DNA of 64,000 nt from Candidatus Kaiserbacteria bacterium (GCA_023264445.1 JAHFMN010000002.1:142720-206719); one strand, 5' to 3'. Positions 26,918 through 47,966 are shown, counted from the first letter of the stretch. Made by a program: numbers and translations. The notes: a model not told the origin generated them from the letters alone.

Positions 26918-28708
26918 ATGAACTTCCTCGCCTCCCTCGTCGATAAAGGACTCCTCTCCGCTGCTGATCAACGGGCTATACAAAACGAAGTTGCGCAGCA
27001 GCGTCCGCTTGCGGACGCGCTTTCCGAGCGCGGTCTCTCGCTTCCGGACGCTCTTGCGGAAGTTGGTGCTGCGTACGGCCTTCCTACGCGCATCCTCGGC
27101 GAGCCTCCAGCCGACGAAGAGGTATTCAGCTATATTCCGCTTGAGTCTGCTCGCCACTACAATTTCGTGCCGCTCGACGTCAATGAAGGCGCACTCGAAG
27201 TCGGCGTCACCGACCCCGACAATATCGAAGCACTTGATGCGCTGCAATTCATCTCGAGTAAGATCGGCATGCCATACAAGGTCTTCCTCATCACCAAGGA
27301 GGATTTCGACCGAGTCATTGATGCATATCAAAATATTTCAGGCGAGATAGGGAAGGCTCTTTCTGAATATGAGACGACGGCAGAACCCGCCGAGAAGGCA
27401 AAGGCCGCGCCGGACACCCCGGTGCTTCCAGAAGAGGCACCAGCGCTCGGCGAAGAAGCACCGCTCACACTCACCGACGCACGCGAGAATCTCAAAGCAG
27501 ACGCGCCAGTGACTAAGATCGTTTCTACGATATTGCGCTATGCCATCGATGGCCGCTCTTCCGACATCCACGTCGAGCCCACGCACGCAAAGACGCGTGT
27601 CCGCTTCCGTCTCGACGGCGACCTGCACACCTCACTTGAACTGCCGGCAAAGGTGCATGAGGCGGTCGTCGCGCGCATCAAAATCCTCGCTAAGCTTCGG
27701 CTCGACGAGAAGCGCAAACCGCAAGACGGCCGCTTCTCGGCCGTCGTCGAGAAGCGTCATATCGATTTCCGCGTCTCCACCTTCCCGACAGAGTATGGGG
27801 AGAAGGTCGTGATGCGTATCCTCGACCGCTCCGACACGACTGCGACGCTCGAGACAGTCGGATTCTCGGCCGAGCAGCTTGTGGAAGTCCGGAAGATGCT
27901 CCAAGTCCCGTACGGCATCATCCTGATTGCCGGACCGACTGGCTCCGGTAAGTCCACAACGCTCTTCGCCATGCTTTCCGAGACCGACCGCGAGACGGCG
28001 AACGTCGTCTCGCTTGAAGATCCGGTTGAGTACGAGATTCCCGGCGTCGCGCAGAGCCAGGTGCGACCGGAGATCGGCTACACGTTTGCCAACGGCCTGC
28101 GCTCCATCTTGCGCCAGGACCCGGACATCATCATGGTCGGCGAAATCCGCGATAAGGAGACCGCCGGGCTCGCGGTGCAAGCGGCGCTCACTGGCCACCT
28201 CGTCTTCTCCACCATTCACACCAACACCGCCGTCGGCGCTATCCCACGCCTCATCAATATGGGCGTGGACCCGTTCCTCATCGCACCGACCCTGATTTCC
28301 GTCATCGGTCAGCGACTCGTGCGTAAGCTCTGTCCGGGCGGCGGGAAGCCATTTCCCGTCAAAGACAGCGTGAAGCTTTTCCTCGACCGACAATTCGCCG
28401 ATCTGCCGGAGCAATATAGGAAGGAATTGCCGCCTTTCAAGGAGTTCTATCACGCAGCGGCCACGGCTGAGTGCCCGAACGGCACGCGCGGCCGCACTGG
28501 CGTCTTCGAGATATTGCGCATGGATAAGACGCTTGAGCAGGTCGTGCTCAAGCAGCCGGTGGAGGAGCATATTTTTGCCGCCGCGCGCGCAAACGGCATG
28601 CTTACTATGCGCGAGGACGCTATTAAAAAGGCGCTTGCCGGCGAGATACCGTTTGAAGACGTGAATACGCTCGGCGGGGAACTTTTCCCCGAGGAAGAAA
28701 CCGCTTGA
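26918..28708 (+). CDS. pilB: type IV pilus assembly ATPase PilB (GspE family)
   Basis: Walker A GPTGSGKST, Asp box, His box, tetracysteine-like region CPGGG ... CPNGTRGRTGVFE. Confidence 0.9.
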   Translation: MNFLASLVDKGLLSAADQRAIQNEVAQQRPLADALSERGLSLPDALAEVGAAYGLPTRILGEPPADEEVFSYIPLESARHYNFVPLDVNEGALEVGVTDPDNIEALDALQFISSKIGMPYKVFLITKEDFDRVIDAYQNISGEIGKALSEYETTAEPAEKAKAAPDTPVLPEEAPALGEEAPLTLTDARENLKADAPVTKIVSTILRYAIDGRSSDIHVEPTHAKTRVRFRLDGDLHTSLELPAKVHEAVVARIKILAKLRLDEKRKPQDGRFSAVVEKRHIDFRVSTFPTEYGEKVVMRILDRSDTTATLETVGFSAEQLVEVRKMLQVPYGIILIAGPTGSGKSTTLFAMLSETDRETANVVSLEDPVEYEIPGVAQSQVRPEIGYTFANGLRSILRQDPDIIMVGEIRDKETAGLAVQAALTGHLVFSTIHTNTAVGAIPRLINMGVDPFLIAPTLISVIGQRLVRKLCPGGGKPFPVKDSVKLFLDRQFADLPEQYRKELPPFKEFYHAAATAECPNGTRGRTGVFEILRMDKTLEQVVLKQPVEEHIFAAARANGMLTMREDAIKKALAGEIPFEDVNTLGGELFPEEETA

Positions 28709-28736
28709 CCTCGGCACGTTGTATACTGAATCCACA

Positions 28737-29135
28737 ATGGCGTACCGAGTTTTTCTAGTTGATGACGATCGATTCCTTCTCGACCTATACGCCGTCAAGT
28801 TTAAGAACGCTGGACACGAAGTGAGCGTGTTCGGTAATGGCGAAGAGCTTCTTACTGGGCTGCGCAAGGCTGATACAGTCGCGCCGGACGCGATTCTGCT
28901 TGATCTCATCATGCCGGGTGTGGGAGGCTTCGAAGCGCTTGAGGCGATACGCAAGGAGCATCTGGCCAAAGGTACAAAAATAATCGTGCTCTCAAATCAG
29001 GGTCAAGATGCCGATATTGAGAAGGCAAAGTCGCTCTCTGCTGATGGCTACATCATCAAAGCGTCCGCAATCCCTTCGGAGGTACTTGCAGAAACTCTGA
29101 AAACAATCGAAGCGGGCGCGGCGAAATCAAGCTGA
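28737..29135 (+). CDS. response regulator receiver (CheY-like, PilH-like single REC domain)
   Basis: DDD acidic pocket (FLVDDD), phospho-acceptor D in ILLDLIMP, and conserved K in the YIIKA region. Confidence 0.75.
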   Translation: MAYRVFLVDDDRFLLDLYAVKFKNAGHEVSVFGNGEELLTGLRKADTVAPDAILLDLIMPGVGGFEALEAIRKEHLAKGTKIIVLSNQGQDADIEKAKSLSADGYIIKASAIPSEVLAETLKTIEAGAAKSS

Positions 29136-44436: not shown

Positions 44437-44530
44437 GTCGTACCAGTATACCGTACACCCATTCGTGTCTGGGATGCTACAGAACGGGGGACTTGCTTTT
44501 TTATTATATATGTGATATAGTGCACCCGGC

Positions 44531-44554
44531 GGTATTCGGGAGTTTCCGAATACC
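44531..44554 (+). promoter_or_regulatory. 9-bp inverted repeat GGTATTCGG-N6-CCGAATACC upstream of the 44586 gene (candidate operator)
   Basis: Perfect palindrome arms about 30 nt upstream of the ATG, just upstream of the RBS GGAGG. Confidence 0.3.
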
Positions 44555-44585
44555 TTTGGACTTTTAACGCTACAGGAGGTGCCAG

Positions 44586-45119
44586 ATGGCGCTCAAATCA
44601 GCGAATCAACCGATCCGCTGGAAAGAGCGAGTCGGCATCATGGCCGTCGGCCACGGTTTCAAGCAGGGAGAGGAGTTTTTCTTCGACTACATGCTTTACC
44701 CGGCCGTCATAGCCTGGCTGGGTGCGATAGTCGGCGGCCTTGCCCTCACCGTACTCTCGGCCTCCGTCTGCTATCTCTACATTCTCTTTTACGACTGGTC
44801 CAAAAAGGACTGGCTCGGTCTCGAGCTTCTGAAGGAGATGCGGGATGGAGGCGAGCATCACGGCCATATCGCACGCTTCATCCAGCGCATAGCTCGTAAG
44901 AGCGATTGGCTGGCATTCCTTGTCTTTTCTTGCTACACGGATCCGTTCATGACGACCGTGTACATGCGAAAGGGCGTTGGAGCGTACGATGGACTCTCCC
45001 GGAGAGATTGGAAAATCTTCTGGGCAAGCGTGCTTGTCGCAAACCTTTGGTGGACGACGATGATGGCGCTTGCAGTCGAGGCCGTTCGCTCAATTCTTGC
45101 TTGGCTTGGCTTCACTTAA
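44586..45119 (+). CDS. hypothetical membrane protein
   Basis: 177 aa, three or four TM helices, preceded by a good SD (ACAGGAGGT). Confidence 0.45.
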   Translation: MALKSANQPIRWKERVGIMAVGHGFKQGEEFFFDYMLYPAVIAWLGAIVGGLALTVLSASVCYLYILFYDWSKKDWLGLELLKEMRDGGEHHGHIARFIQRIARKSDWLAFLVFSCYTDPFMTTVYMRKGVGAYDGLSRRDWKIFWASVLVANLWWTTMMALAVEAVRSILAWLGFT

Positions 45120-45189
45120 TCGGCGGCGGTGTTAACGCACTGCCGCCGGTTTTCTTTTCCTCTGTTTTTGCTACGATATCTTTGTACTT

Positions 45190-45531
45190 ATGAAATCGGG
45201 GAATTGGCTTTTATGGGCCCTGCTCTTATCAGTTATAACTGTCTGCGGCGCAAGCGCATACAAGTATTTTGTTACTGAAAACTATTCTTTTTTTGTTGAA
45301 GCGGCTTGCGATTCTATAAGGCAAGAGTGTTACCAGAGAGACTGTTCCAACCCGGACGATTGTCCGCCAAACGGCCTTTCTGTGTACAAAGTATTCGAGC
45401 TTCCGGCCTCTGAATTCAAGAATTGTTCCGATAACTCATGCGTCAATATTTGCCCTTCCAGGGAGCAGCAGTGCATTGAAATCCCCTGTAATTCCCAAAG
45501 CGATATATCCTGCATAGGACCACAATCATGA
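45190..45531 (+). CDS. secreted Cys-rich small protein (10 Cys), function unknown
   Basis: Signal peptide MKSGNWLLWALLLSVITVCGASA, then ten cysteines in about 85 aa. Confidence 0.45.
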   Translation: MKSGNWLLWALLLSVITVCGASAYKYFVTENYSFFVEAACDSIRQECYQRDCSNPDDCPPNGLSVYKVFELPASEFKNCSDNSCVNICPSREQQCIEIPCNSQSDISCIGPQS

Positions 45532-46346
45532 CCCATCCTCTCTCACACATCTCATTCTCATCCACAGGGGTCATACGATTCGATACGTTTGATGACCTCT
45601 ATACCGAACCACAACTCGCTCTTGCGGAGCTCCGTAAGCGGCGGAAAGACGCACAGCTCACCGATCTAGTCCATAGAGGATTGAATGGTTTTGCAAAGGA
45701 ATTTTTAAAAAGACATAGTCGTCCGCGCGCAGTGCTCTTTCGCCAGCTCGCTACCCCGACTCACGAAACTATCCGTTTCTTACGGTTGGCAAAGAATTTA
45801 GGACTCGACCCGCTTATACTGGAATACCTTGGAGATAAATTCGTCAGCACAGGCAATCGATATAAGCGTTCTCTCGGCAAAATGCCGATTTATCAGTATA
45901 CAGGTGCCGATGGGAGAGATATGTTTCGCTACAAGTCCGTATGCGACTTCAATCGATTTACGGGAAAGGCAATTTCTAGCGTAGAGTGCCATAGCGGAGA
46001 ATCGCTCGTGGCGCTTCATCACCGTCTACTGCAGTCTGTCACTAAACTTGACCCAAGGAAATATTGTATAGATGGGACGAAGTGGTTCCGAGGCGTCGGC
46101 AAAAAAGCAGAAAATTATTATGAAAATTTCCTTCGCCTATTTATACGAGACGCTGTTTTATTTGAGAGCTTCGTCCCCTTCAAAGCGGAGGGTTCGTTCA
46201 CTAATAGCATCATAGTCCCATCCTTCAAAGCTGTCTTTTCGCAGTATGGTCTCCGGCCACTTATCGTTCGTTTACTGCCTGACGTCGACGAGACACGTTT
46301 ATTTTGGGATTCTTTTCCAAAGAAAGTAGAGCAATATACACCCTAA
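45528..46346 (+). CDS. hypothetical protein
   Basis: 272-aa ORF overlapping the upstream stop by 4 nt; lower GC than the genome average. Confidence 0.45.
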   Translation: MTHPLSHISFSSTGVIRFDTFDDLYTEPQLALAELRKRRKDAQLTDLVHRGLNGFAKEFLKRHSRPRAVLFRQLATPTHETIRFLRLAKNLGLDPLILEYLGDKFVSTGNRYKRSLGKMPIYQYTGADGRDMFRYKSVCDFNRFTGKAISSVECHSGESLVALHHRLLQSVTKLDPRKYCIDGTKWFRGVGKKAENYYENFLRLFIRDAVLFESFVPFKAEGSFTNSIIVPSFKAVFSQYGLRPLIVRLLPDVDETRLFWDSFPKKVEQYTP

Positions 46347-46349
46347 GCT

Positions 46350-47966
46350 ATGGACATCAACACTTGTCTTGCTACTACAGACAGCGTCCGAAATCTTGCG
46401 ATGTATTCGCATCTCGTTCCGGCGCTCGCCACTCTTGTTCTTGGAACGTTTGCATTCACCAAAACGCAAGACCGTCTCAAGGGCTTCGCTTTCTTCACGT
46501 TCGTCCTCATATTTGCAGCATGGCTTGTCGGTGATTTCATCGTTTGGGTATCCAATAGCTATCAATTGGTCGCCACGTTCTGGGCCCCTCTGGATTATTT
46601 TGAAATAGCATTCTTCCTCTCCCTTCTTTTCTTCGTGTTCATAACCTTTTTCCCCAATAAACCCCGCTGGGGAATGTGTCTCCTCATACTCGCGGCTGTT
46701 GTAGTCCCTTTCGCTCTTACGGTAATGGGAAATTCTCTTCTTGAATTCAATCAGCCCCAATGTGAAATGCTGGAAAATGCATTTCTTACCCAATACAAAC
46801 TCATATGCCAGGGAGTCATCCTCGCCCTCATCCTCGTTATGTCCGTGTGGTCTTTCTTACGGGCGAAAGTTACTGAAGAGCGAATCCGAGCAGTACTGGT
46901 CGGAGTGTCCATCGTCCTCTTTATGGGAATCTTTGCTGGTAGCGAATATCTCTCATCAGTTACGTACGTATATGAAATCAATCTGTATGCGCTCTTCACC
47001 CTCCCGATTTTTGTCCTTATTCTGACCATTGCCATTACCAGCTATGGTACGTTCCGCCTTGGAGATACGGCCGTGAAGGCTCTATTTTATGTATTTCTCA
47101 CGCTTGCAGGTTCACAATTCTTTTCGGTAACGAATCTTACGGATTTCCTGATTTCGGCGATGAGTTTTGGGACCATTCTCATCATGGGCATCATGTTGTT
47201 TATCAGTAATGAACGGGAAATAAAGATACGTCATGAAGTAGAGCGCCTGGCCCATGAGCTCGAGCAGACGAATACGCGGCAGGAGACACTCATTCATTTC
47301 ATTGGGCATGAGGTCAAAGGGTTCCTAACCAAAGATGAAGGGGCGTTTGCCGCGCTTGTCGATGGCGACTTTGGGAAGCTCGAAGACGGTATGAAGCCGT
47401 TCGTGGAATCCGCGCTCGCGCAATCGCGTGACGGTGTGCGTTCGGTGACAGATATTCTGACGGCCGCCAATCAGAAGAAGGGAACGATAAGCTATGCAAA
47501 GGAATCCTTCGACCTGAAACAACTTGCGATGGATGCTATCGAGAAAGCGAAGTCGATGGCGGGGGAGAAGGGTCTCACGCTCTCCTTCTCGGCGGACGAG
47601 GCCGGAGCTCCGTATACCATCAGCGGAGACAAAGCAAAAATCAGCGATAATGTCTTACGAAATATCATTGAGAATTCCATACATTACACACCTTCGGGCT
47701 CCATCGCTGTCTCGCTCAAGAAAGAGAACGGCAAAATCGTATTTGCCGTGAAGGACACTGGTGTCGGTATCACAGAAGAAGATAAGAAATTGCTCTTTAC
47801 CGAGGGTGGTCATGGCAAAGAATCACAGAAGATAAACGTGCATTCCACGGGATACGGTCTCTATATCGCAAAGAACATCGTCGAAGCGCACGGGGGCACT
47901 ATCCGTGCCGAATCAGAAGGGGCAGGCAAGGGCTCGACGTTTGTTGTTGAACTACCGGCGCAATAA
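46350..47966 (+). CDS. sensor histidine kinase with N-terminal 7-8 TM sensor domain
   Basis: Many N-terminal TM helices, HisKA H-box (FIGHEVKGFL) and HATPase_c N/G1/G2 boxes (NSIHYT ... DTGVGI ... GYGLYIAKNIVEAHGG). Confidence 0.8.
   Translation: MDINTCLATTDSVRNLAMYSHLVPALATLVLGTFAFTKTQDRLKGFAFFTFVLIFAAWLVGDFIVWVSNSYQLVATFWAPLDYFEIAFFLSLLFFVFITFFPNKPRWGMCLLILAAVVVPFALTVMGNSLLEFNQPQCEMLENAFLTQYKLICQGVILALILVMSVWSFLRAKVTEERIRAVLVGVSIVLFMGIFAGSEYLSSVTYVYEINLYALFTLPIFVLILTIAITSYGTFRLGDTAVKALFYVFLTLAGSQFFSVTNLTDFLISAMSFGTILIMGIMLFISNEREIKIRHEVERLAHELEQTNTRQETLIHFIGHEVKGFLTKDEGAFAALVDGDFGKLEDGMKPFVESALAQSRDGVRSVTDILTAANQKKGTISYAKESFDLKQLAMDAIEKAKSMAGEKGLTLSFSADEAGAPYTISGDKAKISDNVLRNIIENSIHYTPSGSIAVSLKKENGKIVFAVKDTGVGITEEDKKLLFTEGGHGKESQKINVHSTGYGLYIAKNIVEAHGGTIRAESEGAGKGSTFVVELPAQ

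Follow-up and report, generated by a model that had tools for sequence, protein, structure and literature searches.

A conserved Parcubacteria gene set, a proposed signalling module, around an orphan multi-pass histidine kinase

Four adjacent genes in a Kaiserbacteria-like Paceibacterota (CPR) MAG raise the question of whether they act together and, if so, what the histidine kinase at their end responds to. They lie in a 64-kb stretch of DNA, called the window here. The first-pass annotation had described a membrane protein (TM177), a secreted ten-cysteine mini-protein (Cys113), a 272-residue protein (P272) and an orphan kinase (HK538) as a lower-GC, tightly packed cassette in which a secreted ligand might be sensed by the kinase. 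All four ORFs were found where it had drawn them (Table 1). The module is a widely conserved, proposed signalling set of Parcubacteria consisting of a small membrane protein, a Cys-rich surface-anchored mini-protein, a Rossmann-like protein and an orphan multi-pass sensor kinase. Downstream of HK538, the minus strand carries tRNA-Asp and tRNA-Met genes and there is also a cupin gene; no response regulator gene is present there.

Table 1. Positions in the window of the genes, predicted domains and control elements of the module
Feature	Position	Strand	Basis or detail
Promoter-like element of the TM177 unit	44492-44521	+	CTTGCT-N17-extended -10 TGaTATAGT, read from sequence
9-bp palindrome, base helix of TM177 5'-leader stem-loop	44531-44554	+	Perfect inverted repeat
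Shine-Dalgarno site of TM177, AGGAGG	44574-44579	+	Read from sequence, 6 nt before ATG
TM177	44586-45119	+	ORF, 177 aa
Intrinsic-terminator-like hairpin and T-run, end of TM177 unit	45118-45161	+	15 pairs, 9 G-C
Extended -10-like box TGCTACGAT	45169-45177	+	Read from sequence, 12 nt before Cys113 ATG
Cys113	45190-45531	+	ORF, 113 aa
Cys113 N-terminal TM anchor	45205-45261	+	Single-pass protein
Cys113 ectodomain	45274-45528	+	10 conserved Cys and RDCSNPDDCPPNGL motif
P272	45528-46346	+	ORF, 272 aa
HK538	46350-47966	+	ORF, 538 aa
HK538 TM segments (~9, residues 16-288)	46395-47213	+	Hydropathy
HK538 DHp and CA domains	47247-47963	+	Alignments
HK538 predicted phospho-accepting His320	47307-47309	+	Orthologue alignment

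About 100 related loci bring homologues of the module genes together, and this is so for searches anchored on P272 as well as for those anchored on TM177. Of the 21 species-level loci anchored on P272, 18 contain a kinase gene, 19 a Cys113-like gene, 17 both of these and 12 TM177, which disposes of the objection that these genes never occur together. In an independent set anchored on TM177, 15 of the 19 well-flanked loci have P272 next to it, 9 have the kinase and at least 8 have Cys113; only one had none of them. The TM177-P272 pair is the most widely conserved. Several gene orders were found, namely Cys-P272-HK, P272-Cys-SET-HK (L023), P272-SET-TM177 (L080 and L089) and TM177-P272-HK (L079 and L107), and such permutation points to selection and not to synteny by descent. 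Often the module also has a SET methyltransferase, either inserted or fused to P272. SAM-related genes (SAM_HAT, an AdoMet_dc/spermine-synthase fusion and a predicted methyltransferase) occasionally lie near. The wider context is 2-Hacid_dh and tRNA-Asp here; in L026 and L030 the module lies between dnaJ and trpS/aspS. A second P272 paralogue stands immediately before the kinase gene in L007 and L022. Three loci (L005, L006 and L043) carry P272, TM177 and Cys113 together without a nearby kinase, so these proteins have a function for which a neighbouring kinase gene is not strictly needed; the P272-SET-TM177 trio of L080 has neither kinase nor Cys113 within 4.5 kb. The four genes are a real functional set around a membrane kinase.

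The cassette had been called tightly packed. This holds for Cys113, P272 and HK538 but not for TM177, which is followed by a 70-nt spacer. The claimed 4-nt overlap of Cys113 and P272 is present (ATGA), the P272 stop and the HK538 start are 3 nt apart, and counterparts of both the overlap and the gap were found in orthologues. Because the spacer carries a 15-pair GC-rich hairpin with a T-run at 45118-45151, as well as a -10-like box, the sequence indicates two transcription units: TM177 alone, with its own putative promoter and terminator, and then Cys113-P272-HK538. The hairpin has a predicted stability of -26.8 kcal/mol, and a GC-rich stem with a T-run ("gccgccggtttttcttttt") is seen at the equivalent position in L005-L010 and many further loci. 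The promoter-like element of TM177 was not listed by a consensus promoter scanner, and about 14 related loci have CTTGCA-N17-TGnTATAGT equally far upstream of their TM177 orthologues. A leaderless or near-leaderless start of the second unit is probable, because a -10-like box lies just before the Cys113 ATG and Cys113 has no Shine-Dalgarno site. Similarly, 33 of 35 distinct Cys113 orthologue starts lack an SD-like motif, and a TGnTAyAAnT or TATACT box precedes most starts by 5-12 nt. Cys113 is usually missed by gene callers and is often unannotated.

The palindrome noticed earlier upstream of TM177, GGTATTCGG-N6-CCGAATACC, does exist, and it is the sole match in the window even when 3 mismatches are allowed (0.01 expected by chance); the suggested search near the pil genes found no copy there. 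The equivalent leader region folds as a hairpin in all seven close relatives examined. In 13 aligned orthologous leaders, 93.9% of the cells are paired, as compared to 32-50% in slid-partner controls, and six of the nine pairs show double changes. G-U pairs are frequent in this helix across the 13 leaders; they would destroy the dyad symmetry of the DNA, so the palindrome behaves as an RNA helix. We therefore rejected it as an operator. The covariation identifies it as the predicted base of a 5'-leader RNA hairpin of the TM177 mRNA, for which no Rfam family gave a match. AGGAGGTGCCAGATG is almost invariant among orthologous TM177 leaders.

HK538 is, as had been claimed, an orphan multi-TM histidine kinase. 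A simple Kyte-Doolittle hydropathy scan, from which both the TM count and the sidedness of the loops were taken, gave about nine TM segments instead of the 7-8 first proposed. HATPase_c (PF02518) matches residues 434-537 with E 1.2e-22 (80.9 bits; cut-off, 26.4 bits), and 17 orthologues share the N, G1 and G2 boxes (NIIENSIHYT, DTGVGI and GYGL...GG). HK853 (PDB 2c2a and 3dge) aligns through its DHp and CA domains, end to end, with residues 305-536 (positions 14-246 of the 258-residue HK853 chain, E 3e-19). The closest NCBIfam alignments across these domains include WalK and BaeS; residues 303-536 align with 364-593 of the 594-position WalK model, below the cut-off of that model. Unlike HK853, HK538 has an atypical H-box, HE[VI]KG[FY]LT versus HE[LI]RTPL, and it has no match to Pfam HisKA at E<=0.1; His320 is invariant in the orthologues, as expected of a DHp domain. 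The kinase core thus appears intact from its sequence. The N-terminal nine-TM region matched no described sensor domain, and its predicted outer loops of 17, 24 and 14 aa are too short to hold one. Two cysteines, Cys6 and Cys138, are invariant in the orthologue alignment and are predicted to be at the outer face.

No REC domain was encoded within 6-10 kb on either side of the kinase in 25 related loci. An adjacent response regulator is typical of the kinase family and is not obligatory. The only REC ORF in the window lies, as had been stated, in the pilus operon, at about 28665-29135 between pilB and pilT and 17 kb from the kinase. We found no evidence for the suggested cross-talk to pilus or competence genes, and in annotated relatives the module is away from pilus genes.

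P272 represents a new family with 957 clusters at 50% identity. It had been listed as an unknown protein; no housekeeping role could be assigned to it, and no sequence match was found in Pfam, NCBIfam or the PDB. The structure model is confident and HUP-like; P272, a cytoplasmic protein, has a divergent Rossmann fold of the HUP class (class I aaRS/nucleotidyltransferase-like). Foldseek gave no significant match, and the nearest folds, LysRS-I, BshC, ATP sulfurylase and NMNAT, are all enzymes. Residues R72, P95, D103, K113, L116, H164, P231 and P244 are invariant. Four of these, R72, D103, K113 and H164, together with the conserved E99, H165, D182 and E213, are at the C-terminal ends of predicted strands. 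These R, D, K, H and E residues resemble a catalytic site more than a pure sensor.

By inspection, the HIGH/(H/T)xGH and KMSKS/ISxxxxR signatures are absent from an alignment of 53 P272 sequences. The loop after strand 1 reads R-Q-x-A-T-P-x-x-E, without conservation of the His, and the last strand is not followed by a KMSKS-like loop. With these nucleotide-binding signatures missing, it would be wrong to class P272 with the aaRSs or nucleotidyltransferases. It also differs from BshC, MshC, cyclodipeptide synthases and NMNAT/NadR: it has no significant sequence or Foldseek match to them, their catalytic signatures are missing from the alignment, and its gene neighbourhood (HK, SET, TM177 and Cys113) is unlike theirs. 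P272 is fused to SET and GNAT enzymes in some genomes, and in one family member (P0260) to a multi-TM domain.

The small protein had rightly been described as cysteine-rich. Of the 11 cysteines of Cys113, ten belong to the ectodomain and only one to the TM helix. The idea that it is a secreted, diffusible ligand or bacteriocin did not hold up. A possible signal-peptidase site, ASA/Y, follows the hydrophobic helix in the Cys113 of the window, but orthologues do not preserve the AxA site (...ILGQSMYKNY... and ...ASFYIYFF...), and in the AF2 model residues 3-28 form one uninterrupted helix. In the same loci, Cys113 identity is 41-59% (tblastn) compared to 37-58% for P272, so Cys113 equals its neighbours in conservation. 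It is also translationally coupled to P272, a cytoplasmic protein. Cys113 is best described as a predicted signal-anchored protein with a putatively disulfide-rich ectodomain. When it was examined as a RiPP or pheromone precursor, no conserved cleavage motif, variable core or double-glycine leader was found. Similar to Agr, ComCDE and NisK/NisR, the gene of a small exported Cys-containing protein adjoins that of a polytopic histidine kinase; unlike them, the module has no leader or cleavage motif, variable core, processing or export protein or adjacent regulator, and Cys113 keeps its TM anchor. The module encodes no ABC transporter or other exporter, no processing peptidase and no kinase-regulator pair, which speaks against a peptide-signal cassette.

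TM177 has, by hydropathy, two hydrophobic hairpins (residues ~31-66 and 144-176) separated by a charged cytoplasmic loop of 77 aa. No Pfam or NCBIfam model matched it. All of its 100 homologues are from CPR or unnamed metagenomes; the family has conserved motifs and is restricted to Paceibacterota.

We tentatively read the module as Paceibacterota-specific envelope signalling by a sensor kinase that would need accessory proteins, and we regard the chance of this as slightly short of even. HK538, with about nine TM helices and short outer loops, would have no ectodomain of its own and would be made from one near-leaderless, translationally coupled transcript with Cys113 and P272. Cys113 would be the outward-facing sensing subunit, next to the two invariant outer-face cysteines of the kinase. 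From the inside, P272 would bind a small, probably adenine-containing ligand and would modulate the kinase or relay its state. TM177, separately transcribed, may be the membrane partner on which P272 docks, because these two form the most widely conserved pair. In some lineages, a SET methyltransferase is added between P272 and the kinase or fused to P272. The kinase would autophosphorylate on His320 and pass the phosphate to a regulator encoded elsewhere. We infer all of the physical contacts, the sensing role of Cys113 and ligand binding by P272. Counting against this reading are the loci in which P272, TM177 and Cys113 have no kinase nearby, the P272-SET-TM177 trios, the catalytic look of the conserved P272 residues and the EamA-family transporter found where TM177 is absent.

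Kinases with accessory proteins are known from Firmicutes cell-envelope stress systems, including LiaF-LiaS, BceAB-BceS, GraX-GraS and YycH/YycI-WalK. Like LiaS, BceS, GraS and WalK, HK538 lacks a sizeable extracytoplasmic domain and has small membrane or membrane-anchored proteins, which presumably provide or modulate the input, encoded beside it. However, HK538 has about nine TM helices whereas LiaS, BceS and GraS have two; LiaF, YycH/I, GraX and BceAB are not homologous to TM177, Cys113 or P272 by Pfam and NCBIfam; all of these systems encode a cognate regulator, which is not found beside HK538; and the module is CPR-specific. By analogy, the module may act in a manner resembling the LiaFS, BceS and GraS systems, and it does not belong to them. 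HUP-fold proteins can modulate histidine kinases, as in the Usp domain of KdpD and the UspC scaffold. P272 is likewise a cytoplasmic HUP-class Rossmann-like protein with a functional tie to a multi-TM histidine kinase, but neither Usp (PF00582) nor KdpD domains match it in sequence, class I aaRS and BshC are closer to it in fold than Usp, and it is a separate polypeptide, unlike the KdpD domain, that is fused to SET or GNAT in some genomes.

A somewhat unlikely alternative is that the genes form a scavenging, transport or envelope-modification pathway. P272 would then be a ligase or transferase of the HUP fold with an amine-bearing or adenylated substrate, and the kinase would only regulate the pathway or be co-regulated with it. 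TM177 would be the membrane conduit (an EamA transporter in other lineages), Cys113 an extracytoplasmic acceptor or helper, and SET or GNAT enzymes would tailor the product. The invariant charged residues of P272 are at the usual active-site edge of the fold, and its enzyme-like nearest folds, its Rosetta-stone fusions with SET and GNAT and the occasional SAM-related neighbours point the same way. An EamA-family transporter flanks the module where TM177 is missing, and in the 21 species-level loci the two never share a locus (12 with TM177 versus 7 with EamA), which hints at metabolite transport; the P272-TM177 pair is also more widespread than the kinase link. On the other hand, P272 has neither HIGH, KMSKS or another known nucleotide-binding motif in its alignment nor a sequence-level tie to any enzyme family, TM177 bears little resemblance to known transporters, and a carrier protein, an ABC system or further pathway enzymes are not consistently present. 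A stoichiometric complex better fits the close translational coupling between P272 and the kinase that is seen in most lineages.

It is quite unlikely that HK538 works without a classical response regulator, with P272 (with or without SET) and TM177 as the output. In this CPR-specific pathway, an extracellular cue read by the Cys113 ectodomain would lead to phosphorylation and/or lysine methylation and so to regulation of some activity at the membrane, for instance uptake or envelope modification. P272 would in that case be a novel type of HUP-fold kinase partner or phospho-acceptor, and the module would be a candidate host-sensing device of episymbiotic Parcubacteria. Neither protein was recognised as a REC-like phospho-acceptor by hhalign against REC: the probability was 0.1% for P272 and 2.7% over 23 columns for TM177. 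TM177 had a PDB profile match to CheY with E 0.37.

Very little weight can be given to the possibility that the low-GC stretch came in recently as a mobile or foreign cassette, its gene order being due to co-transfer and not to joint function. The cassette has a GC content of 0.487 compared to 0.538 for the window, the 8th percentile among sliding windows. The GC3 values of Cys113 (0.47), P272 (0.46) and HK538 (0.55) are well under the 0.59-0.73 of neighbouring genes, and the genomic surroundings of the module differ between lineages. The lower-GC claim is therefore correct for these three genes but not for TM177, which belongs to the same gene set and has host-like values similar to housekeeping genes (GC 0.552, GC3 0.68). 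Moreover, the ORFs examined gave no sign of an integrase, a transposase or flanking repeats, and the module is confined to Paceibacterota, present across that group and permuted in its internal order. At most, a three-gene unit may have been swapped for the copy of a lower-GC relative, which would not contradict joint function.

The original proposal, in which Cys113 is a secreted signal or bacteriocin-like factor, perhaps modified by P272, with TM177 for export or immunity and a kinase that senses the factor and crosses to pilus or competence control, has the small size and cysteine content of Cys113, its possible cleavage site, its genetic linkage to the kinase and membrane proteins and the location of the single REC ORF in its favour, but it is the least credible reading given the retained helix and unconserved AxA site, the neighbour-like conservation of Cys113, the 25 related loci without an ABC exporter or peptidase or an adjacent response regulator, the RNA nature of the palindrome and its absence near pil genes, and the distance of the module from pilus genes in relatives.

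As a minor observation, none of TM177, Cys113 and P272 matched the defence-system models of PADLOC, and the ATPase domain of HK538 gave weak matches to one candidate defence family in that collection, PDC-M43B.

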